A stretch of 63,815 nt of DNA, filler included, from Hausera hauseri (Eukaryota): assembly GCA_046269625.1 (NCBI GenBank). It is 11 parts of 11 records of this genome, joined end to end, with 100 filler letters (N's around TTAATTAATTAA, not from the genome) between each part and the next. Parts side by side here need not be neighbours in the genome. Positions count along the whole stretch, not along the records: positions 51,598 to 56,227 come from JBJURY010496686.1; 10 more parts are not named here. The stretch is one strand, 5' to 3'. The notes beneath the pieces are model-generated. The model was not told where the DNA came from, did not search any database, and saw only the letters and a list, made by a program, of their open reading frames with translations. Numbering within the stretch: position 1 is the stretch's first letter; every line of letters starts with the position of its first letter. The translations under genes were made by a program, and so were the position numbers. This document shows positions 10,958 through 56,327 of this stretch, piece after piece.

Positions 10958-12700
10958 GTACCGTAAATATTGTCCGTAAGGCGCTAATAATAAAATATAT
11001 AGCTAGAAAACCGGAAGCTGCTTGGCCAAAATATAAGACCTTTCCCCACATCTTCTCCATAATATTTCTTCTTACTTTCCTTAGATAATCCTTGTCCATT
11101 AGATTTTCCCATTGTTGTGATTCTTCACCATCCCACATGACTCTCCGGGTTAGTTCTGTTATAACTCGTTGTCTTTGTTGTGGGAATAACAACATTTGTC
11201 GATAATATTCTAGATTTTGTTGTGTGTAAATTCCTCCATGTGATATTCCTGTTAATGGTTGAAATTTCTGATTCCTTTGCAAATTAATCAAACTCAAAGT
11301 CTTCGGTTTGGGCACTGATTCTCTTTTTGGCATTCTAATCCATTTATCGTTGTCGATCTTAAACATTGGCGACATATTAAAAGTGCAATTGTATAGTGGA
11401 GTATGATTTACATTAATATCTAATAGTATCCTCGTTACTAGCATCACATCTCGATTCTGTATGATAAACTACAGGTAATTCCATTGTACATTCGTTCGTT
11501 GGCCTGACTGATACTTCTACCTTTTTGCATTCTATTGTTATCAGTACCTCGCCCATCACTCTTCCGATAATTTCGTCGCCAACAGGCATTACTGGCGCTA
11601 CCATGCCTGGATTTGTTATTACCAATGCCACTTTATTACGCATTATTTCATAGTTTAGTTTACATTCATTCATTATTATTTCTCTATATAAACATATAAT
11701 TTCTTTCCTTACATAATTGATTAGAAAATCGATCTTGTTATCGAAATATTGCTTCAGCTTTATATCTTTCTTATCTGTTTTGGTTTTCGCCCCGGGTATC
11801 TCTTTTCTCGATAAGAAAATATCCTTATAGTTGGTTTTTGATATTTTTTCGGTACACTTATTTGTTACTCCAGTAATTTTGGATTGCATCATTTCTTCTG
11901 GGTTTTCCAAATAAACAATTGCAGCCACTTCCGTCATCTTAACTTTTTTTATTCCTTCTTTATATGTCTTTGTCTCTTTCTCCGCCGCTTTTCATACTGT
12001 TTTATTAAACTTTCCTTCTTTTAACAGCATCAACTGACATTTACTTGCAGAGGTTTCCCATGCCATTTTCGACTCTTCAGTATCACATTCGCCATTATAA
12101 TATTCACATTCACTCATAGTCGTCATCAATTTCGTTTGAGTCGAATAATCCTTCATATTCTTTCAAATGGATCTGATAGTCTTCTATGGCTACCGTTCTA
12201 GGTGCAATGGAACCTCCAACATCGTAGTCCACTCATTTACAGATGTCTTCCATTGTTTATCCATTCTTCCTTCCCTAAAAATTCTGGTATATTTTATTCT
12301 GTTTCGAACTGCCGCTATATGCGCGATTTGTATAGTTATGATACCAATCTTAAAAACATCCTGACATGCTGCTTGTGATATTATTATCGGTTAGAAAAGT
12401 GTGGGCTCAATTATGGCCGAATTTCTAGAGTAATAGCAACAATTAAGAAGGAAAAATGATCTCTTTACATAACATTCCCTGATTTTCGCCTTTATAAATT
12501 CGGATTCTTGGTATACCCAGTATGTAAGAACACTTGTCGTTGTTAACTGTTCTGGGTCGGCTTCTGGACACTTCTCTAAATCAACTAGAGAGTACTTTTA
12601 TCCTTCGCTAGGTTTAGAGCAACCATAAGCCACTATACCCACGGCTTTTGTCATTAATAATGACGTTATTAAGAGAATCTGAAGAATCTCCATTATTGAC
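10958..12700 (-). pseudogene. env: Chuvirus-like (class III/gB-type) envelope glycoprotein, degenerate, truncated at the contig end
   Basis: Signal peptide (ILQILLITSLLMTKAVG) followed by IVAYGCS (AYDC-like). Also GEVLITIECKKVEVSVRPTNECTMELPV, GGIYTQQNLEYYRQMLLFP and a C-terminal TM segment (FGQAASGFLAIYFII). These match chuvirus G motifs as I recall them. Confidence 0.8.
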
Positions 12701-12989
12701 ATACTTGTTATGCCTGGTCTAGAGGTGTTTGGTTGTGTCGCGGTTGGCGTATCTGTTACTCTTTCTCGTTCTTCTGACCTTACTATATTGGTCATTAAGC
12801 TGGTCAGCCATCCACCTCTACATTGAACCCAATTTCCTAACGTATCTTTTAAAATCTTGACGGCTGTCTTTATATTTCGCTCGATTTCTTCCAAATTTTG
12901 AGTCCGGTGATTATTTACTATTATTTTATATAGCAGATAAGATATAGCCGTTTGAGCTTTCTCTCGCGTAATTCCAGTTGCGAAGATTT

Positions 12990-14120
12990 TTATAAAATAT
13001 CTAGTTTATGCAATTCATTTATCCGTTTTTCGTCTAGATTCTCATAGAACTGTCTACTTATTCGTAACAAACTATTGATTAATGCTGCAATTAATTCGTC
13101 TGAAATTATTACCTGCATATCGGATGAGGCAAATGACGTATGATACTTAGCCAATAAAGTTCTTAGTAATGGATCTGTGTCCACCGATTTGGGGATACCA
13201 TTTCTTCCTGCTAATAATAAACGTCTTACTATTTCTTCGTTTCTGTCTTTTTTGTTACAAATATTGCTTATTTTTGTTCCTTTTGGCCTAACTCTTTTGT
13301 TGGCTTCTGTCTGAACTGTGACGTCTTATGAATCACCTGTAGGAATTTCTTATACTCCGTGTGGTTCCATTTCCCTTAAAATATTCTACACCGTTGCCTG
13401 TGCTCTTGCCTCTGGATGTATTTTGGTTATAATTGTCGGATCATAGTTCTCACTTCTACATCCAATTCTCAATAATTTATCGTAGTTATATAACGTCCTT
13501 CCATAGTAATTTAATCCACAAGGATTCCCTTGGTAAAAAGGCTCTAATTCCTCAATCTTTTCTCTTAAAGTTTGCATGTCGTCTGTTTCGTTCATCCTAA
13601 TGACCATCATATCTTGGTTTCCTTACATTACCGCTATCCGTATGACTTCATTTCTTCCTTTCTTATCTTCGACAGCTTTGGCCAGTACTGTTCTGGCTAT
13701 TTCTCTTACAAGACTGTTATTTTTGGCTAATAATACTAATTGAGGTAAGATTTCGTTCATCCTTTCTAACGTCACTTTATTGGTAATTATCTACAGTGTC
13801 GTGGTAGTCGTTTTGTCTACATCAGTTATATTATCGGGATCGACAGTCATTACTACCTGAATGATATTGTTTTCCTCGTCTAAATCTACAACTGGATTCC
13901 TTATTACTTGATCTAATGTAGCTTCATCAAATATTAATGTAGCTTGAGTTTCATCTTTATCAAATAAAGGTATACTAAGGTTACTTTTCTTTCTTCCTCT
14001 TTTCTTTTCCTTTACTACGTCTTTCCTCTTTGTTGATGTTTCTCTTGATCTAACCCCTACGTCAGTTATTTTCTTACTGCCTTTTTTTCTTCCTTTATGC
14101 GATGCTTTTTTCTCCAATTA
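12990..14120 (-). pseudogene. Accessory ORF between gag and env: Lys-rich segment, ubiquitin-like domain (about 13400-13650), helical segment
   Basis: VIRIAVM*GNQDMMVIRMNETDDMQTLREKIEEL...LNYYGRTLYNYDKLLRIG follows the beta-grasp pattern and is homologous to 29398-29730. Confidence 0.55.
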
Positions 14121-31100: not shown

Positions 31101-31342
31101 AAGAAAATTAGCATAAAACCTCCTCCAGGTGCTTTCAAACATCCAAAATGCAAATACTTGCCACCTGGCGGAAATAATGATCATTTTGGGAACAGGCGAA
31201 AATTCCGCCCATCCATGCAGCGAACGGAAATGCCACACAGTCCAAAGGTGAATAATTCACCCTCATTTCCAGCGGCGAAATATTCCTCTCAGCCGAATCG
31301 GAAAAATGAATCAGGAGGAAGGCTGGCGATATGCCCGCCACA
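31101..31342 (-). repeat. LTR, 5' (U3) part
   Basis: Begins TGTGGCG on the minus strand right after the PPT GGAGGGGGGTGA (31343-31354). Confidence 0.85.
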
Positions 31343-31360
31343 TCACCCCCCTCCGAGTCG

Positions 31361-34300
31361 TTATGACGGAACGACGAACTTCTCCGGTGGACGAACACAA
31401 CGTCCAGAGCGTGTAAACGTCGACTTCTCGGTCTGTGCCGATGGCGCTTCTGTCGCTTGAGGCACTGCATGGATGATATATGCGGGTTTTACCCGATCCT
31501 TTGATACAGTTTTTGATTTCCCACCGACATCCAAAATGACTGTTTTCTCGCAGCGCTTCTTTATTCGATATGGACCATCGTATTGAGGCTGCAGCGCACG
31601 ACGTACCGCATCATGCCTTAAAAATACATGCGTACATGTCTGAAGGTCCTTTGGAACATAGACATCAGGCATAGAATGACGTGATGCTGGACATGGTCGA
31701 CTTTCCCGAATTTTCCGCTTAAGTTGCTGTAAAAAAGTAGGCAAGAAAACAGGTTCCTTTATTTCGGAGTAAAAATCCGCTGGGAGCCGTATGGTTTCCC
31801 CGAAAACTAATTCTGCAGCAGAAGAATTTAAGTCTTCCCGCCAAGCACTGCGGATACCCAAAAGTACTGCAGGCAAGGCATCGACCCAGGATGAATTTGC
31901 ATGGCACATAATGGCTTGTTTCAGAGGCCTATGAAGCCGCTCGATCATCCCGTTACTTTTCGGGTTATACGGGGATGTCCTTTGTATCTGTATCCCAAAT
32001 AAAGTAGCAAAAGAGCGAAACAGGGCAGACTCGAATTGCCTGCCTTGGTCACTTGTCAGCTTAGCCGGGGTTCCATAACGAGCGATCCATTGTGAATAAA
32101 CCACCCGTGCAACCGCCTCAGCTGTTATATCTGCTATTGGGATAACCTCTGGCCAACGTGTATAGCGATCAATTATAGTAACGCAATGTGTATACCCCTG
32201 GCACACAGGTAACGGACCAATTAAATCAATATGAATGTGTTTAAAACGTCCCGTCGGAAGTACAAAATCACCGCACGGCGTTCGTGTATGCCGATGAACT
32301 TTCGTTCGTTGGCACTCGATACATGCACGTGCCCAATTTTTTATATCTTTGTTCATACCGGGCCAGACATACTTGTCGGCCACTAATTTACCGGTAGTTC
32401 TGATACCCGGATGAGCTAAGTTATGGAACGCCTCAAAAACCTTTTTCCTAAATCTTAATGGAACTAGCGGTCGAACCTGTTGAGTAGAAGCATCACTATA
32501 CAACAAAACATCGGTCTCCGGAACAGCAAATTGCTTAATCACAAAAGAATTTTTTATTTTACCGGCCACTATATCTTGAATTTCGGTATCCTCCGTTTGT
32601 GCGAGGGCTAATGCCTGCCAGTCAATCTGGGATGGAATTGTAATCTCTTCCAACCTAGATAAAGCATCTGCAATGGCATTCTGATCACCTGAAACGTACC
32701 GGATATCTGTAGAAAACTGCGAAATAAATTGCAATTGTCTAAGGCGCCTAGGTGGTGCCTTTGAGTCATTTTTTTGTAAAAACGAAAACGTAAGAGGCTT
32801 GTGATCAGTATAAATGCTAAATGGCCTCGCTTCGAGCATAAACCGAAAGTGAACTATAGCAGAATAAATGGCAAGTAACTCGCGATCATAAACTGAGTAA
32901 TTCTGTTGTGTCCGCGTCAATTTCCTGGAAAAGAATCCAAGGGGTTTTAAACCTCGCTCTTCCTTTTCATGAAGCGCAGCCCCCATAGCTAAATCGCTGC
33001 AATCAGTATATAATGCTAAGTGTGCATTTACTGAAGGATAGTGCAGCAAAGTTGCTTTAGCTAACGCCTGCTTTGTGGCCCGAAAGGCTTCCTTCGCTTC
33101 TTCCGTCCAGGAAATTTCCGTATTTTTATTTCGTTTCTTTGACCCCTGAAGATATGCATTTAATGGTATTTGTTTTTGTGCAAGGTGCGGTATAAATGAA
33201 TGATAAAAATTAACCATACCCAGAAATTGTCGCAAATTCCGGACGGTTTTAGGTAGAGGGTAATTCTGAATCGCCTGTACACGCTTTTCCAATGGCCGAA
33301 ATCCAGCCTGGCTAATCGCGTGGCCTAAAAACTCTACCTCCTGCACACCTAGTATACATTTAGAGGTATTAACTTTTATTCCGTATTCTCGGAACCTCGA
33401 AAAGATTACCTGCAGGTGTTGCATATGTTCCGTCTCATTTTGACTAGCAACCAACACGTCGTCGATATAGGCGAAACAAAATGACAATCCCCTTAGTACT
33501 TCATCTATAAAGCGCTGGAATGTTTGCGCTGCACCGCAAAGTCCAAAGCTCATAAACTTAAATTCATATAACCCAAAGGGCGTAATTATGGCTGTCTTAC
33601 ATCTATCTTCGGGGTTTACAGGTATTTGGTGATAAGCCCTTAACAAATCGATCTTAGAAAATATTCGAGTACCATGCAATTGCTGAGAAAAATCTTTCAA
33701 AAATGGCAAGGGATATTTATCAGGAACCGTAATCTTGTTTAATTGCCGATAGTCTCCCGTTGGCCTCCATTCACCCGATGCTTTCGGGACCATATGGAGA
33801 GGACTAGCCCAGTTGCTGCGTGATGGTATGCAAATCCCATTATCCAGCATATATTTAAACTCGGCCTTAGCGACCTTAAGCTGGGCAGGGTGCAATCTAC
33901 GCGCACGAGCCTGAACGGGAGGACCTTTCGTATTGATAAAATGCATTGTGTTATGTTTTACAGCCTCTGTCGATAAAAATCCCGGCTGTGTTATCTCCTT
34001 AAAATTGTCAAGAATCTGAAGAAATTGTGCTGTACCCTGTATACTTTTGATGTTCGGCATATCACATCTCAATATGTACCCTTTGTATGCACGAGATTCA
34101 TTGGGATCAGTTAACACTCTTTGTTTTATATCAATAATCAAACCAAAGTGTTGTATAAAATCCGCTCCTATAATCGGTTTAGATATATCAGCAATTATAA
34201 ATGTCCATCTATATCGCCGATCTCCCCCCAAATTCAAAGTAAATTCCTTCGTGCCGTAAGTACATATATTGGAGCCATTTGCAGCCGCCAGAGTGAAGTC

Positions 34301-35269
34301 AGTTTTCCTTTTACCTCTGACATGCCTAGCCGGAAAACAGCTCACATCACTCCCTGTATCAATAAGGTATTGTGTACCGGTACCTCTATCACTAATGAAG
34401 AGTCTTTGCCCCGTGGCATCTATCGCATTTAATTTTAACGGATCAGAAACTTTCTTTTTCTTTTTGTCATCGGCTGTGTAACTACATGGTTTAATACATT
34501 TTGTGGCTTTCTCGCCGTAGGAACGATGATACCAACAAAATCCGGCTTGGGATGTAGAACTACATGTTCTATCCGCCTTATGCCTTGTGGGTCCAGTTCG
34601 CTCCCTATATGAAGTCTTTGGGTATGTATTTTGCCTGTCATACAGCCTATTGACTTTAGAAGTTAAAGTTCTAATTTGAGATTCTAATTTTTTTAATCCA
34701 TTGGTATTGTCAGTCTGTGCAACAGCTGCCACGGTTGTCTGCGTACCTACACCCGCGATTTTATCGGCTATTTGTGCAAGCTCTGTTAAATCTAGTGGGC
34801 TTGCTGCCAAAATCGCTTGCATATTTTGTGGGAGGTGAGTCATCCAGAGGCATTTCAGGAATTCTTCGTCCAGCTTGTTGCTTCCCAACTCACGCATCTC
34901 CAGGAGAAGCTCTGAGGGTTTTTTATCACCCAGTACCAACTCCTTTAAGAGCATATGTACTTTTTCGGGTTTGGACGGCTCATACTGTTTTAACAAACGG
35001 CCTTTTAAAGTAGTATATGGTTCCTTTGCATGCGGAGTATAAACCACGTCGGAAACGTATTTTAAATGTTCCGCTCCCACTGCTGCTACCAAATAACTAA
35101 ACTTAGTACGCTCAGTGGTTACCTCAGCTATTTCAAAATTGGCTTCAATCTGGGCAAAAAAAAGCCGAATGTGTGCCGTTGAAAACTGCGGAATTTTCAT
35201 TCCAATCCTATTTACTGTTTCCCTGGGTTCCATCCCGCTAAGTGACAAAGTGACCAAAATGCAAAGCAA
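31361..35269 (-). CDS. gag-pol: Intact single-ORF Gag-Pol of a CsRn1-like Ty3/Gypsy retrotransposon (likely ATG at 35233)
   Basis: 1302 aa uninterrupted. CHCC knuckle [18 protein letters not shown], protease LIDTGS, RT YIDD, RNase H TDCS/ELLAI/TDHKPL/ADALSR, integrase HHCC + D,D35E, and a GPY motif. Confidence 0.97.
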
Positions 35270-35480
35270 AACGACTTACCCGTTCCTCCAGTTCAGTATC
35301 CAGTTACAGTTCTGTGCTGGCGAGGCTACTCACTCCCAGCTACAGTCAAAGCACTCCTCATTCCAAACTCCAAAGCGTAGCTTCTTCCTTCTTGAAACTT
35401 GTACAGGTCGCATATCAATTTTACCGACATCTGTTCGCAACTCCGGTCGTCCAAAAAGAAAACTTAGTCCAGACGATATC

Positions 35481-35488
35481 GGTCACCA
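35481..35488 (-). promoter_or_regulatory. Short PBS, tRNA-Trp-like
   Basis: TGGTGACC matches the first 8 nt of the tRNA-Trp PBS typical of CsRn1-like elements. Confidence 0.55.
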
Positions 35489-35490
35489 CT

Positions 35491-35887
35491 TTAGACAATT
35501 AAAAGTCCAATTTGACTCTGGGATACAAAGAAATCCCCAGAAGGCTACTCTTATTGTCGATAAATCCATGACGAATCCTGCAGTGGTTTCATTTAAATCA
35601 TGCACTAAACCAAAATCTTTTTCTAACAATTATTTATTTAAATTTAACATATATAAAATATAAAAGGTTAAAAAACAATTAAATTAATAAGCATCTTAGC
35701 TTTTAAACCAAGGAATGCCGAACTGGCGTACAAAAAAGAAAGGCAATCCTCGTATGAGGAAGAAAGAACTCGAATCTGAATGTCAGGAATGCTGCAAGCG
35801 TATTTAACCCAAGAAAATTAGCATAAAACCTCCTCCAGGTGCTTTCAAACATCCAAAATGCAAATACTTGCCACCTGGCGGAAATAA
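35491..35887 (-). repeat. LTR, 3' part; overlaps the other contig end by 77 identical nt
   Basis: 35811-35887 is identical to 31101-31177. The segment ends just before the PBS. Confidence 0.8.
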
Positions 35888-35990
35888 NNNNNNNNNNNNN
35901 NNNNNNNNNNNNNNNNNNNNNNNNNNNNNNNTTAATTAATTAANNNNNNNNNNNNNNNNNNNNNNNNNNNNNNNNNNNNNNNNNNNNGCT

Positions 35991-38570
35991 ATGTGTTCTC
36001 CAACTATTAGACGGACTCCAAATGAAATTCCCGTTGGATTAATTGATCCAAATAAATTTCTGTCTTATTCGCAAACTGTCCACAAGCCTCAATTGACAAA
36101 TTGCCAAACATATACAAAAACCGACGTTTCGGATGACGCGATTCTGAATTTTCCCGATATTCAATCAAAAACAACCAAACGGCGTGCTCCGGCTATTCAA
36201 AAAACAGTAAATAAAAAACAGAAATTATCTGAACAACCTTTTGTGGAACGACCGAATTTACCGCCTCAACGCTGTCAACAAAATATGGCTAAATTACTCG
36301 GATCTCCATGCTTTCGAAAATTAGTTCACGAACCAAAAATTGTCAACAATCTTCCCGATTTAACACCAATCGGATGTAAACATAAATCCAATTTGTGTTT
36401 TGATGTGAAACGTTTGCAAGAAAATTGCGTTAAATACAAACGATTTCCCTTTACAGTCCCTCGAATTAACCCTATGAATTTCAGAAATGTTTCGAAATCG
36501 TCAACGTCTGAAACATCAGAAAACAGCTTCATTCTTCAGAATCTAAATGCCATTATTCCGTACGGTCCGTTGCTCACCACCAGGGAATCCGATGAATGTA
36601 TTGATTGTATCATAGCTCCATCACCCAACACGAACGAATTGGATTATTTTAACGTTTTCAACTGCGACCAAATTTCATCTCCATCCGTCAATCTGTCTGG
36701 ACCGAATCTCGAAATGTTGCGTCCACCAAATCGAATCCAATCTCCTCAATTGTCTGTTTTCCATTGTCCAAATCGAACGTATGTGAAACTTGATCAATTG
36801 TCCGAATGTAATATGCAAACGCGGAAATTTGACGCGCAATCGTTGTTAAGATCGACGGGGATATCGAAAATACAGATTTCTCACAAATCAGCCTTTATTT
36901 CCGATTCCGTTTCAGCAACTATCGATTCAGAAACGGGTGAAATCGTCAATAAAGTTTCCAATGAACAGATTTCGTCGGAAATTAAACGAGAAAAATTGCT
37001 GTTGACGTTTACTCTAAATCCGCCAGATGATATTGAGAAAACCGTTCGTAACATAACCGACGTGTTAGGAATTGACTACAGCAGCGTTGCATTCAAATTA
37101 ACAACATCCGGTGGTGAGATATCAATCGATAAGCATAGTATTGTGGACAGTAAATTGAAATCCGATCCTGGTATTTTACCAAAGGAAATATCCGATCGTT
37201 TGGCAAACACGTCAGTTGCCGTCAATTCCTTGTAATCAACTGCCTGTTGTCCAACGACAACCACAAGTACGACGAATAATGCCGTTTCAAATTTATATTC
37301 AGACCATATTAAATCGGATTTTCCAACTTATTTATACAAAATATACAAATCGACGTCATTAATCGCCAAACCGAATTTGAAATGCTCAAATTACGATAAA
37401 CCACCAATTGCGAACTGGGATAAATCCAAATGTCGAGAAACGCTGTTTTGTGATGATGCATGCCAATTTCATTTCAACAATGCAACTGTTGACGACGATG
37501 GAAACGATGTTGTTCCATGAATAACGTCACCAACAACATTAAAACGACGGAACTGCGGGACCGTTGTATTTTTATCGGCCAACAACCATCGGAAATGGCG
37601 GTGATTTTATAAGGATCCTTGTCGAAATCGAAACAGTTGTCCAAGAAATCCGGTAACGTCGTCATTTGTGATAAGTTGTTCATAAAAAAGAAATTGAATT
37701 TGCAGCAATTAAAATTGTCACCAGCGACTGCAGCAGCAGCTGCGTCGGTAACGCAAAAAAATCACAAAGGGTAAAAGTACTTAACGTTCCATTCCAAAAT
37801 TCTAACCGATCAGTCATTGTGTCATTTGTCGGTTATTTCCGATAATCAATTTAAAAAAACTTTCAATTCCAAATGTGTCTTAAGGTGGAACGATCTCGCC
37901 GATAATTGAATTTGTTCGCTCTGTAAACGAAGCGGTGATTTGTCGGAAAACGGTGCTGTTCGTTTGTTGTTTTGACACGGACAAATGACTCCATGTTAAT
38001 TGTGCATTGTGATGTAACAGTGTTTTTGAAATGCAGTGCTGTGCATGCAATAACGTTTCCGAATCATTTGAGTGCGCCGCAAAAACCATCTGTTTGTCGT
38101 GCGGCAAATCCGGTGCGGGTATCGGATGTCTTTATTTTCGATGTACGTCGAAATTCCATGTGCCTTGTGCTCGGAAGATAAATTGCGTTTATTATGCTGA
38201 TAGAACTATATATTGTCCGGCACACTTCTATCAAGATCTCGGTTTGCCACTGAATTCGCTTATCGTTGGTAGGCGAGTGTACATTTCACGAGATGAGTCC
38301 CAACAAGTCGCCTTAGTTATAAATGACGATGATCGTAATTTTAATTTACGAATTGGATCACTTATTCTGTTGCCAATTGGCCAGTTGCTGCCTCAACAGA
38401 TTCATTCAGGTAATTACCATAATCTCAATTACGTCTATCCCGTTGGTTATAAGTCCTGAAGAATCCATTGATCATCTAGATTAATCGGTTGTCCATCAAT
38501 TTACGAATGAGAAATTGTCCCTGACAAAGACAACAAACAATTGTTTCAAGTTACAGCTCACGACAAATGG
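35991..38570 (+). pseudogene. KMT2C: KMT2C/D (MLL3/4, trithorax-related) fragment: low-complexity region, extended PHD and FYRN; no SET domain
   Basis: *LHVNCAL*C..VFE...CLSCGKSGAGIGC..FRCTSKFHVPCARKINCVYYADRTIYCPAH; VGRRVYISRDE; LRIGSLILLPIGQLLPQQ...YPVGY. Trp codons are converted to stops. Assignment of the upstream 414-aa ORF is by position only. Confidence 0.8.
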
Positions 38571-38599
38571 ATGAGTCTTGCTGTTGATCGACAGAAAGA

Positions 38600-38880
38600 T
38601 ACGGACTCTACGAGACGCATTACCACGTCACTGACTGATAAATTGATGTCGTGAGTACATTTGGGCATTCAGGGAGCGTTGTTGTCTCAGTTAATATCAC
38701 CGGTGTACCTTTATATCATTCAGTTTGGAAAAGATTACATACACGAACATATATCTCGAGCATTGTTGTGTCGTGTTCTAGTGAATTATTTGATAGACGA
38801 AACTGATACGTTCCATGACTCATTGATCGAGTTACACAAATAACAACCGATAAGCTTCGAATGGACTGGTTTCATTGGGA
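38600..38880 (+). pseudogene. ADAR/ADAT adenosine deaminase catalytic-domain fragment
   Basis: SLTDKLMS*VHLGIQGALLSQLISPVYL..I.FG..Y..EHISRAL..R, compared with ADAR [43 protein letters not shown]. Confidence 0.75.
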
Positions 38881-45418: not shown

Positions 45419-45436
45419 CCACGGGGGGTATTGTAG
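45419..45436 (+). promoter_or_regulatory. Polypurine tract and probable 3' LTR start (TGTAG at 45432)
   Basis: CCACGGGGGGTAT-TGTAG downstream of integrase. Confidence 0.55.
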
Positions 45437-45570
45437 TGCCTATTAAAAAATTTTAGTTTTGTCAAAGTCGGCCGTATGCTTGAATTCGTCTCTTAACTCA
45501 TTAACTTTACTCAGATCGACTCCTCGAAATTCTTTTTTGGAAAATCCAATCGATATACTTTAGATATAAA

Positions 45571-46300
45571 ATGAACGACATTTTCCATGATATTTATTGT
45601 GGTTCTGTTGAAGGTCTTTTTTGTTTCATGACATTCAACAAAGATTCCATATTATTGGATTCCTTAACTGATGATTACCGATTCGATCCAACCCATGCTG
45701 CTGCAGCATTCAACCAAGTTCATATTTTATCACTGCTCTATCTCTGGGAATGTAACATGGACAAACACGACAGTAATGGTCTGACACCAATCATGTACAC
45801 CTGCTTCAATGAAGATTCTATCGAATGCTTTCAATTTCTCTCTCTTATCGGTGCTAATCTAACGATTAAATCCATCAAAGTTAACATGTCAATAATTAAT
45901 CTTTTGATCCGGTATAAAAATGTCAAAATCCTTAGACACCTTGCTTTTAAAACAGATTTCAAAGATCTTTGTTCGACAAAACTCAGTTTGTCTAGTACCA
46001 AGTTCCTGGATTCCATTTTACTATCAGTATTTATTGCTTCATTCTTCCATGGTTGTTCTTTCTGATTTTAATAGTTTTAAATTCAAACAGATTCGGAATA
46101 ACACTCAAAATTGTTTTGGTAGATATAGCTTTTTATGCACACTCAGTAGACGTTACTGGATACAATCGTTCACGATTAACTCTGGGATCATGTTCGATAA
46201 TCATGTCGCCACATCTTGAGTTTTTTTAGAATCATGTTCTATGGAATTTCGGCATTCAACTAGTTGAATTTGGTATATTTGTACTGTGTGCTGTGAAGGC
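45571..46300 (+). pseudogene. Ankyrin-repeat fragment, ZDHHC17/HIP14-like palmitoyltransferase
   Basis: PTHAAAAFNQVHILSLL...MDKHDSNGLTPIMY...SIECFQFL, then a hydrophobic segment and a possible decayed Cys/His-rich region. Confidence 0.5.
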
Positions 46301-51597: not shown

Positions 51598-54325
51598 TTA
51601 TGGATGAAGTGGAGTGTGCCTAAGAAACTCCTCATATCCGTAGTAGTCGTTGGTAGCGTTATGTTTTTTCATTGATGTAGTCGATCCGGTTATGGAGAGT
51701 AGCCGTAAGGAGTGATGATGTGGCCTAAAAAATTAACACGTTTTAGAAAGAAATGACACTTAGAGAAATTGACTTGAAAATTGCTGTGATGTAGTCTGTG
51801 AAAGATAATACGGAGGTGTTCTTGATATTGTTTAACATATGTGGAGGTAACTAGTATGTCATCAATGTATGGATGAGCAAAGTCAAGGCTTGAGAGGACG
51901 GTATCAATATGTCATTGAAAAGTTTGGGAAGCTCTACGTAAACCAAATAGCATAAAGATATATTTATAGAGGCCACATGGAGTAATGACGGCAGTTTTTG
52001 GTATATCATCAGGTGCAACCGGAATGTGATGATAATCTTTATGTAAGTCAATTTTAGAGCACGTGGTAGTATTGGTAAGACTTTGCAGGATGTCCTTTAT
52101 GAGAGGTAAAGGGCACGCATCTAGGGCTGTTAGGTTGTTTAACTGCCGATAGTCACCACATGGTCCATCTTTCTTTGTTACTACATGCATTGGTGATGCC
52201 CATGGTGATTTTGATCTTCGAATGATGCCAGCATTTTAGAGTTCATTAAACTCTGATTCAACGGCTTTTCGCCTACGATGTGTCAGTGGTCTGACATTTT
52301 GCCTCATATGTCTTTGGTGTTTGGTGACTATGTGGTGATAAGTTGTAAAAGGCGGCTTGAGATTGACATCCTTTTTGAGTGTGCGGAAGCAAGAAGTTGT
52401 GATATAAGATTTGAGATTGGAATTCAGCGATGAGAATGATTGAGGCATATCATCAAAAGTGACAGTGGATGGTATTGGCGAAGAAAAAACGTAACTGCCA
52501 CTCTCAACACTCCGTTTACTCGGTCGTTTTAAAACCGACTTAGATACGTTTGATGTGATAAAAGAAATGGATGAAACAGTAAATGCACCGTTATTTGCCG
52601 ACAAGCAAGTTTTCAAATTCACGCGCAAGTTGACAGCCGAAAACGGCCTAGTTTCTACTGGGGCTGTTTGGTAGATATTTGTTAGCATCCACGACGGAGA
52701 TTTTGCGCAGCGGACAGCGATACTTGCAGTCAACTAGCAGATCATATACGGCCAGAAAATCTGAGCCGATTATGGAGAATTTAATACTAGCCACGTAAAA
52801 TTTCCAGACAAACTCATCTGGCAAGTTGGCGAATGTGGAAATCAGTTCTGCAGTGAAAAGCGGTGGAGAAGAAACTATAGTGGATTTAGGAGTGAAGGAC
52901 AAGGGAAGGAGCGAAAAGGCAGCTCCTGAATCGATGAGTAAGACAATGTGTGAAGCACTGTTGTGGAGCAATGCAGCTTTTAACAGAAAAACTGCAGAGG
53001 CGGTGTTAAGACGGCCAGAATATTCAGCGGTATTGTTACTTTTTTGAGGTTTGTTGGGAAAAAAGAAGAGGAATGAAAAGAGGGAGGAGGCGAAGAAGAT
53101 GGAGAAAACTAGAATTCTTTTTATAATATTTGCATCCTGACACACACGACCTAGCCTTGGACTAATACTTTGTGTGATAGATGCAGATCGGGTTGTCTAC
53201 TGCATAACGTTCATCGTAGAATCGACAACCTAAAACACATTTCCTTGCGTCTCTGCGGAATTTATTGTAATAAAAACATGTCATTCTACCATCTCTAGAT
53301 TTGGACCGAAAAGAGTGCCTGGAAAAACTGCGATTGCGCGAACCACGGTTTTCGCTTCGTCGAGGCACAGATAAGTCACTAAGTTGGACTGTGATCGCAG
53401 AAATTGCCTGTTGTAATGTGTCGAATTGCTTCTCCATCATATGCAGTTGTTGTGCAAATAAACTGTTATCTGTGTGTGACGATGTGTGAGGGGTTGCTGC
53501 AGCTACTGGCTCTGAATTATTAGACTGCAAAATGTCAAAACTTTTGTCTGCCAATAGGGCGAGTTTTTCAAGGGCCGTTGAGTAGTCTACTACCGTGAGC
53601 AACGTTCTGATGGAGGTTGGCAAAGATGAAAGAAAATACCTACGAAGAAGATCGGCATTGTTTATAGGAGTGGCGCCTAAAAGACTTAATTGAGAGATCG
53701 CAGTTTTAAGGAAATCTGATGTTTTTGATTTCCGATGGCGTGTTCATTAAAGTATTTCTGAATTATGCTGTCAATGGAAGTGTCCGTGATATGCAGAACT
53801 GATTCATAAAGAATATCATATGTAGTTGAAGAAGTAAATATGTCAGCAAGATTGTTGATTTGCTGCTTGATATTAGCTGGAAGTAGTAGCAGCAAACTCT
53901 TCGCCCGCAAAAAGGAGTCTGTGATATGATTGGCTTTAAGCCATTGCAAATGGAACTATAGCCAAGTGCGACTCGAATTTGTTTTATCAAGAAAAAAATC
54001 TGTGCAAGGAAGATTTGGAAATGTAGTTCGTGTGGGATCGGCAGGACAACGACCAGATTTGGTTTTGACTAAATTTTCGGAGAAATGGTCAGTGTCTGAT
54101 CCACCACGGATACGACAATGGACAGTGAGTATCACTGAATGTTTCCCGGTTGCAAAAGATGACAGAGTCGGAAGGTAACAGAGTCAAGCCATTGTGCATG
54201 CATTAAAAGTCGGAGGAGCCGAAAAAGGAAGACAATTCAGAATAAAGGATGCGCGCCGTATGTTTTCATGCAACCATTAGTGTGTATTCATGTTTATTAT
54301 TAAAAAAATAAGAATGGAAAGGGGA
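51598..54325 (-). pseudogene. gag-pol: Decayed CsRn1-like Gypsy gag-PR-RT, same family as C2 and C8, with an N-terminal ubiquitin-like domain (54100-54325)
   Basis: LTVHCRIRGG, LEKLALLADK, twin CHCC knuckles, [27 protein letters not shown] and YIDD. Confidence 0.9.
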
Positions 54326-54849
54326 TACAGTGCAGCGGGGACGGTCACGCTTGGTTCCCCAGTCAGACAATTCCTTGGCTGATTTGTCAATAGAGAAATG
54401 TTTCATGAAAATCCAATTAAAATTACTTTGACTGTGGCCCTTTTGAGTCTTTCCAGTGAATTAACTTTCCATCGAATGACTCATCGAATGAACGAATGCG
54501 CCATCAGTGAATACCACCAGATATGATTTGGATTCAGGATTGGCATCTGTTAGTTGCAACATTTACCCCGTAGTCATATTGACAAATTTTTTAAGAACCT
54601 GTTGGGTTAAATCGCTTCTCAGTGTGTTATACTGGAAGTCTGAGTACATGGATTGCTCAATAGTCGACAATGACGGATAGATAGCATCAATCGTGATTGC
54701 GTTGGATTGTTTTGCGGATCTGTCATTTTGTGCATTGTAATCAAAGGTCTTTGCCTTTCCAGTCATTTTAAACGCTATATCATCATTAAGCTTCGTTGGA
54801 GTTGATAGATTTTTTTGTTCCATGTTGTCGATGTTGATCGTATTCTCCC

Positions 54850-55310
54850 AATTTACCCAAATCAATGATACAACATGAACAAGCGGTTGAATAAAACGCT
54901 TAATGTTTTCGAAAGCTTCTGATTCAATATACTCAACGTGAGTTATTAATGGAACTAAGAAGGCGTAAATCGTTTCGGCTTCAACATATGCTCGTACAGC
55001 CTTTTTAAATGTTTCTTTATACGGTTTGGCATATACAATGTTGTATTTTTCCAACAACAATGTCATGTTTTTCACTTTTGGATGTATTATTTGAGTATGA
55101 ATATCAAAAACACAATTTCATCGCTTTTTCCAAAATTTCAATTCATCGGAAGGTATAGCAATTTTGCCTTTGGAAATAATTTCGCCAGAATCTTCTAATA
55201 CTTCGGCTATATGTGATGTCCAATTAATAACCGTTGTTTCAAAACTGTACATCAGACTTACAATAACGTCATCACCCCTGCAATTTTAACATCAAATTCA
55301 TCCATTTTGT
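54850..55310 (-). pseudogene. Axonemal dynein heavy chain N-terminal (DHC_N1) fragment, outer-arm beta type
   Basis: FETTVINWTSHI...ELKFWKKR...KVKNMTLLLEK...EAETIYAFLVPL...IQPLVHVVSLIWVN resembles the DNAH9/11/17 tail. Confidence 0.75.
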
Positions 55311-55584
55311 CCAAATTTACTGGATGAATGTGTCGTTTAACAATTCGCGGTTTGCATGATACTTTGGTCTTACTTACTGATGTTGAAAATAGCTTTTTAC
55401 CCGAGTCTGTTTTGATAAGTGGCTTTAGAATTTTCGATGGAACGATGTTCTCATTTCTGGGAATGAAAGATAGAGCGAGATCGACTCGCGGGAACAATTT
55501 TGATTGTCGAATACTCTGATTAAACAGTTTCGGAATAAGAGATGTTTTAGCAACCGGTAACGATCGTAACAGATCGCTTATAAA

Positions 55585-56227
55585 TTCGGATAATTCGATA
55601 ATTCTGCACGCTAAAGCCTCGCCATCATTAAGCACTAATCATTCGATATGTAACTCGTGTCGGTGCAGTTGCCGAACTTCGTGGAACTAATGCTCTCAGT
55701 CCAACATGACGGTTGTCATGCATAGAAGCATCGACAAGAAACGATACCAGGAACACTGACGTAACTGGTTTCCTTGTAATTAGGACATTGTCTGGTGTGT
55801 AGTCCCAGTCAGTCAGAGTAACAGCGTAGTCACTGATTTCCTTTGTTCTCACAATGGAGTCCTTTATTATTCCAGACTCTCGTAGAAAATGATTTTGATC
55901 ATTAGCACATCCTTCATGTATGCTCTCTTCATGGGAAATTACCAAATGAAGTGCTGTGGAATCAAAATTCGTCTGTGCGCTGATATCACAGTTGTGCCGG
56001 AGAAGACATTTAATCATATTCAGTTGTCCAAAGTGACAAGCCGTGTGCAGTGGAGTATATCCGGCTTTTGTTTTTGAATCTATCTCGCAACCCGCCGACT
56101 CCAAAATTTCTGTAACATTTACACGATTTTCTTGAGCTGCTAAATGCATACTGTTTAAGAGATTTTTTGCTTTGGCATTAGCGTCTGTTTCTTGACTACA
56201 AAGGTGCAATGGAGTAAAACCGTCATG
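55585..56227 (-). pseudogene. ANK: Canonical ankyrin fragment (last ANK repeats plus start of ZU5), internally deleted
   Basis: HLAAQENRVNV, TKAGYTPLHTACHFGQLNMI, FLVSFLVDA, APTRVT and LNDGEALACRIIEL. Confidence 0.85.
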
Positions 56228-56327
56228 NNNNNNNNNNNNNNNNNNNNNNNNNNNNNNNNNNNNNNNNNNNNTTAATTAATTAANNNNNNNNNNNNNNNNN
56301 NNNNNNNNNNNNNNNNNNNNNNNNNNN

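Follow-up and report, generated by a model that had tools for sequence, protein, structure and literature searches.

Host-gene pieces ahead of a decayed CsRn1-like Ty3/Gypsy retrotransposon in Hausera hauseri, and their possible capture from mRNA

The window analysed here is a stretch of 63,815 nucleotides from assembly GCA_046269625.1 of Hausera hauseri, composed of 11 unrelated contigs (4-10 kb each) split by ten identical 100-nt linkers. Contig 10 (positions 51598-56227, cut at both ends) is the source of a real mosaic of host-gene pieces. Read along the minus strand it contains an ankyrin piece, segment 1, a dynein piece (DHC_N1), segment 2, a motif resembling a primer-binding site (PBS), and the gag-pol region of a decayed retrotransposon. 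A second mosaic of like layout is present in contig 8. The contig 10 cargo was probably, although by no means certainly, captured from host mRNAs when the reverse transcriptase (RT) of the element switched templates. An original prediction, made by inspection of the sequence, had described most of this arrangement; its ankyrin with deletions, DHC_N1, two unmatched segments, 17-mer at 54361-54345 and same-strand gag-pol all stand, and its ubiquitin-like domain is without a family match. It had also missed that position 56227 is the contig end adjoining an artificial linker.

The ankyrin repeats match Pfam Ank with E 6.6e-15, and the ankyrin piece has four internal deletions in all. Positions 56224-55943 align with residues 808-914 of the O. 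viverrini protein P0004 minus 13 residues. About 161 codons are then lost with the frame kept, and positions 55939-55637 follow as P0004 1076-1188 minus three residues (a 3-codon deletion). A further loss of about 10 codons, together with a frameshift, precedes a 14-residue ZU5 piece (55632-55591). When the linker/ZU5 part was compared with 120 ankyrins, the top six were all from trematodes or cestodes, with 77-90 bits, and the others reached at most 60; because of these matches the source is likely a parasitic flatworm, as judged from the ankyrin piece. No intron interrupts the 212 aligned ankyrin codons or those of the dynein piece, a stretch that spans three spots where trematode annotations drop a block, for which reason an exon border is likely at each spot. 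The hint of microsimilarity at switch points is at the protein level, with HL on one side versus HS in cestode linkers.

The dynein piece matches the DHC_N1 profile with E 1e-24 when stops are written as X, and corresponds to residues 207-349 of DNAH9 (E 2.3e-19). No intron was found in its 142 codons. Its upstream limit is uncertain, as matches end at 55273 and the codons before that position are matched by nothing; no longer dynein relatives were returned by a word-index search limited to 2000 residues. Both neighbouring segments are unusually open. Segment 1 has no stops where 7.1 are expected (P 0.0055), and segment 2 has two where 10.6 are expected (P 0.0065), in each case as the best of six frames over 2000 shuffles. 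Neither a Pfam match nor a PDB match at E of 10 or less was found for segment 1, and for segment 2 a search of 1.84 billion representatives gave no true relative and the Atlas no usable match; the two matches from the former search are sums of weak repeats and were rejected. The idea that segment 2 is an extension of gag common to contigs 8 and 10 was also discarded, the loose alignment with the contig 8 upstream region having vanished under stricter scoring and shuffles. Neither segment 2 nor that upstream region matches the sequence past the polypurine tract (PPT) of contig 8, and an origin as its copy was likewise dropped. The cargo contains three stops in about 620 codons and the aligned gag-pol five in 530, a similar level of decay. 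Five of the seven junctions are in frame (P 0.045), a partly circular count that is not taken as evidence of selection. No tRNA was found in contig 10, no Rfam match came near the gathering score (2 weak hits), and a search for relatives in viral contigs and prokaryote genomes returned none.

By its gag knuckle, domain order and DUF7041-type gag similarity the contig 10 element is classified as CsRn1-like Ty3/Gypsy. According to the excerpts of PMC2582038 and PMC3630058, the CsRn1 clade is defined by a CHCC knuckle, a tRNA-Trp PBS and a 4-bp target-site duplication (TSD). Two CX2HX9CX3C knuckles are present in the contig 10 gag, the first with H changed to Y and the second with a stop; the contig 8 copy also has two, one of them intact. 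A gag search gave 3 hits, two of them DUF7041 proteins, and the decayed gags have no direct Pfam DUF7041 match. The order protease, RT, RNase H, integrase (PR-RT-RH-IN) is present in contigs 2 and 8, and contig 10 ends in RT. The contig 10 pol is 39% identical to the intact polyprotein of contig 7, with 4 stops. Contig 7 (31101-35887), which was used as a comparison, contains an intact 1304-aa DUF7041 gag-pol with ordinary non-coding flanks; its 77-nt end overlap points to a collapsed repeat or a circle.

The predicted PBS is a marginal match, with 12 of 18 positions agreeing with a tRNA-Trp PBS (P 0.03 for a 300-nt stretch), and a chance site at 54986 scores just as well. It is unlike the PBS candidate of the contig 7 element; in contig 8 the same test found 10 of 18 positions in agreement, about as far from gag. 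The ubiquitin-like label given to the gag was not borne out, as there is no Pfam match at E of 1 or less, no PDB match at E of 10 or less, and no ubiquitin cluster among the Atlas matches listed. The only hint in that direction is an xRxRGG motif resembling a ubiquitin C-terminus, common to the contig 8 and contig 10 copies. DNA identity is 76-84% between the elements of contigs 2 and 10, which are close relatives, and 62-65% between those of contigs 8 and 10. By the usual rule, members of one family share about 80% DNA identity. The contig 8 and contig 10 elements, placed in the same family by the prediction, are below this rule and are classified as different families of one lineage, hence as independent cases.

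The second mosaic, called C8 in the prediction, was taken to be contig 8 by inference from its layout. Its KMT2C/D and ADAR cargo is sense to its gag and has no sequence in common with the contig 10 upstream region, which confirms the recurrence with unrelated cargo. The orientation is the same relative to the element, as had been claimed, and opposite with respect to the window strands. An ankyrin-repeat open reading frame (ORF) with an ATG start (45571-46062) begins 140 nt past the PPT, also sense to the element. The TGTAG at 45432 is likely the start of the 3' long terminal repeat (LTR), its spacing from the G6 tract being equal to that in the intact contig 7 element. Between the 0.9 kb past the PPT and the 4.7 kb ahead of gag there is no match, and therefore no short LTR pair is seen in contig 8 over these stretches. 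The contig 8 mosaic opens with a 415-codon open frame (35988-37232, plus strand) that has no family match; it may be a further part of the KMT2C/D mRNA or a separate piece of cargo. Two weak Pfam hints in contig 8 (RPC82 helix-turn-helix, E 0.05; NEPRO_N, E 0.008) were left out of the cargo count.

A control scan was made of 134 open frames of at least 70 aa in 8 other contigs, with contig 7 outside the scan. Fifteen frames had a Pfam match at E of 0.001 or less; 13 of these were to domains of mobile elements or viruses, and the other two to a kinesin and, weakly, to a ubiquitin-like domain. No contig in the scan had two host genes on one strand. Mosaics are thus in both of the two gag-bearing contigs of the lineage versus none of the 8 other scanned contigs, a post hoc comparison with n = 2.

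All five firmly named host pieces on three element flanks (ankyrin, dynein, KMT2C/D, ADAR and the 3' ankyrin-repeat ORF) are sense to gag-pol; the probability of this is 0.03 if the pieces are independent and 0.125 if the flanks are. Sense orientation, absence of introns, truncation at both ends and codon-scale deletions are together as expected from serial template switching. In contrast, the kinesin-like gene of contig 9 keeps a GT-AG intron (48569-48334). Under capture from mRNA, the RT would switch template onto co-packaged host mRNAs and then back, a jump within one mRNA producing a deletion and a jump between mRNAs adding a new piece, and the cargo would then travel with the element and decay along with it. 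An mRNA origin and serial switches appear likely from these features, and the cargo may have travelled with the element. The architecture of sense-strand, intron-free pieces 5' of gag stands as predicted; the link of cargo to element, as against insertion beside an older mosaic, is putative, with two cases compared post hoc.

Public run X1, possibly the source sample itself, contains 0.49 of the sampled words, and 30 of 30 bins are covered by its contigs. The X1 rows considered are part of the tables, which have a further 848 rows of variants, 29 of joints, 574 of loose ends and 3947 of pieces. One X1 contig of 401 nt is letter-for-letter identical across 54916-55316. A second joins 55200 to 55287 via 36 different letters; within these, a core of 25 letters agrees with 55262-55286 at 24 positions, and therefore a second, diverged copy without about 50 nt exists. 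Variant contigs are found over segment 2 (3-15 per listed site), the PBS-like motif and the leader, some of them 60-112 letters from contig ends, and the junction of these three parts is likely shared by other copies. Among the rows listed, no contig bridges the ankyrin junctions or the join of dynein and segment 2. Summed contig depth, a contrast measure only and not a copy number, is high from about 54230 downward, with at least 2,300 in most gag-pol bins and two bins at 409 and 1,027. It is 193 at 54233-54387, 76-105 in segment 2, and 14-33 in dynein, segment 1 and ZU5, with a step at 54852/54853, the border of dynein and segment 2. The ANK repeats (55938-56227) have a summed depth of 132-165, with 3 contigs at the listed sites, well above the adjoining cargo at 14-33, and additional copies of the ankyrin piece may exist.

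Several observations weigh against capture by the element. The fall in depth from segment 2 to dynein and segment 1 is one, and most copies bearing segment 2 may be without the distal cargo. Contig 10, cut at both ends, shows neither an LTR pair nor a TSD nor a 5' boundary, and element sequence lies only 3' of the cargo, as the contig stops on the 5' side. Gag-pol is kept and the cargo precedes the PBS-like motif, unlike the replacement of internal ORFs in PMC5131818. In the third copy of the lineage, in contig 2, gag is lost and the neighbour of the element is a Polinton-like polB piece instead of host mRNA. Finally, there are two mosaics, and the contigs of the window may stem from more than one organism. 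Either the PBS-like motif is a chance match and the cargo lies in a long leader, with the true LTR past the contig end, or the cargo lies in or instead of the 5' LTR.

The best-surviving rival is that other machinery, such as LINE (long interspersed nuclear element) template jumps or a pile-up of processed pseudogenes, made the mosaic, that a Gypsy copy simply adjoins it, and that segment 2 (about 490 nt) is an ordinary subfamily LTR. This is rated unlikely. The depth step falls exactly at the border of dynein and segment 2, there is a TG at 54850, the length of segment 2 is LTR-like, and head-to-tail chimeras arise from LINE double jumps (PMC2104539, from an excerpt). Against it, segment 2 is coding-like (P 0.0065), has no CA end and is no deeper than the leader; the post-PPT sequence of contig 8 is unmatched ahead of gag; no poly(A) tail was seen; and the 8 control contigs contain no mosaic.

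Somewhat less likely still is that the lineage lacks an ordinary short LTR and instead has multi-kilobase LTRs, in which U3 collects scraps of host mRNA by template switching and segment 2 is a shared LTR core by the PBS. Such LTRs would fit the presence of host pieces on each of the three flanks in view, one of them 140 nt past the PPT, and the depth step at 54850. Every cycle would then double and spread copy-specific gene mosaics, and LTRs longer than 5.5 kb would be required in contig 8.

It is improbable that the joins are assembly or amplification chimeras of a fragmented short-read assembly. The contigs are short (4-10 kb), contig 7 has its end overlap, one junction region alone is visible among the X1 rows listed from what may be the source sample, and a public chimeric protein with this gag exists (P0124). 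On the other side, X1 covers all bins and contains both the identical 401-nt contig and a diverged second copy of the region; codon-scale deletions within one gene, stops and strict strand order are, as general knowledge, unusual for assemblers and strand-displacement chimeras. The least probable reading is that a Helitron or Pack-type transposon captured the pieces at the DNA level and the Gypsy element inserted later, as the pieces are intron-free, the frames scanned in contigs 8 and 10 have no Rep/helicase or transposase match and no ends are visible, although such elements take up same-strand fragments of several genes (PMC6431247, from an excerpt).

Capture of host sequence by LTR elements is already known, and the sources are again cited from excerpts. 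Tan et al. 2016 (PMC5131818) reported partial, multi-gene retrocopies flanked by LTR elements across animals, in which the cargo replaces part of the internal ORFs. As here, intron-free host pieces that lack both of their ends and have no poly(A) tail adjoin an LTR element; in some cases two or more genes contributed, and re-copying with the element is possible. Contig 10 differs in its retained gag-pol, its cargo 5' of the PBS-like motif, its many internal deletions and its up to four pieces. In maize Bs1, segments of three host genes are fused in one frame, and in BARE-2 foreign sequence entered the LTR through template switching (PMC13317346). Both are plant elements, and the BARE-2 insert is another retrotransposon, not host mRNA; in contigs 10 and 8 the fused frame is no longer intact, and each of the two distant families has its own cargo. 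CsRn1 and PwRn1 (PMC2582038, PMC3630058) share the CHCC-type knuckle, the PR-RT-RH-IN order, a flatworm host and a likely -1 gag/pol overlap; the contig 10 lineage differs in having two knuckles, host cargo and a leader with xRxRGG at its end, and in showing no short LTR pair. Planarian Burro (PMC6431247) is a flatworm Gypsy element with host-like domains, including ankyrin repeats and a ubiquitin/SUMO-like motif. It has CCHC knuckles, and its extra domains are intact inside a giant polyprotein common to thousands of copies, whereas the pieces in contigs 10 and 8 are broken, outside gag-pol and different between copies. The literature listings covered, with few subscription journals among them, showed no report of a flatworm CsRn1-like element that has pieces of host mRNA ahead of gag or within its LTR. 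Cargo 5' of PBS and gag would be the new aspect, if it is tied to the element. The features are summarized in Table 1.

Table 1. Features of the contig 10 mosaic and of the contig 8 comparison, in window positions
Feature	Positions	Strand	Remarks
Decayed pol (protease, RT)	51598..53060	-	RVT_1; cut in RT by contig end
Decayed CsRn1-like Ty3/Gypsy gag	53036..54269	-	leader ending xRxRGG, DUF7041-like core, two CHCC-type knuckles at about 53278-53132
PBS-like motif (weak)	54345..54361	-	92 nt ahead of likely gag start
Segment 2, nearly open, in frame with dynein piece	54362..54847	-	no family match; variant contigs in run X1
Dynein heavy chain (axonemal outer-arm, DNAH9/17-like) DHC_N1 piece	54848..55273	-	Pfam DHC_N1; one stop
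Segment 1, open frame, in frame with ZU5 piece	55274..55590	-	3' border with dynein uncertain; no family match
ZU5 piece	55591..55632	-	86% over 14 aa to P0004 1199-1212
Ankyrin linker and ZU5 start	55637..55942	-	47% to P0004 1076-1188; joined in frame
Last ANK repeats, ankyrin (UNC-44 type)	55943..56227	-	51% to O. viverrini P0004 808-914, in-frame 13-codon deletion; Pfam Ank
Artificial linker	56228..56327	.	44 N + 12 bases + 44 N, joins unrelated contigs; mosaic cut here
Contig 8 comparison mosaic	37992..38780	+	KMT2C/D-type PHD and FYRN, then ADAR deaminase piece, one frame
Contig 8 decayed gag-pol, lineage of contig 10	40701..45170	+	
Contig 8 PPT-like G run 45423-45428, TGTAG at 45432, ankyrin-repeat ORF	45423..46062	+	

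The public protein P0124 consists of a bacterial DUF5777 N-terminal half (87% to L001) and a C-terminal half that is the gag of this lineage (62% to contig 10). It is most likely an assembly chimera; a metagenome scan returned the bacterial half alone. The kinesin-like gene of contig 9 (47528-48780, minus strand) is divergent and has one in-frame stop upstream. Contig 3 contains broken pieces of a Monjiviricetes-type fusion glycoprotein (10959-13005, minus strand; Pfam E 5e-29 and 6e-22). Pieces of a Polinton-like protein-primed DNA polymerase B (polB) are located at 9686-10510 in contig 2, 22154-25280 in contig 5 and, probably, 56451-57293 in contig 11; that of contig 2 abuts the gag-less copy of the contig 10 family.

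Should the cargo be unconnected with the element, contig 10 would contain a mosaic of decayed pseudogenes next to a retrotransposon of a common kind. Should it be the element's own, the lineage would be an engine of exon shuffling and pseudogene amplification in a parasitic flatworm genome. Apparent gene copy numbers would be inflated, small-RNA regulation of the parent genes could be fed, and many independent junctions would be available for the study of template switching. In the case in which the LTRs themselves carry the cargo, these elements would stretch what an LTR can be.

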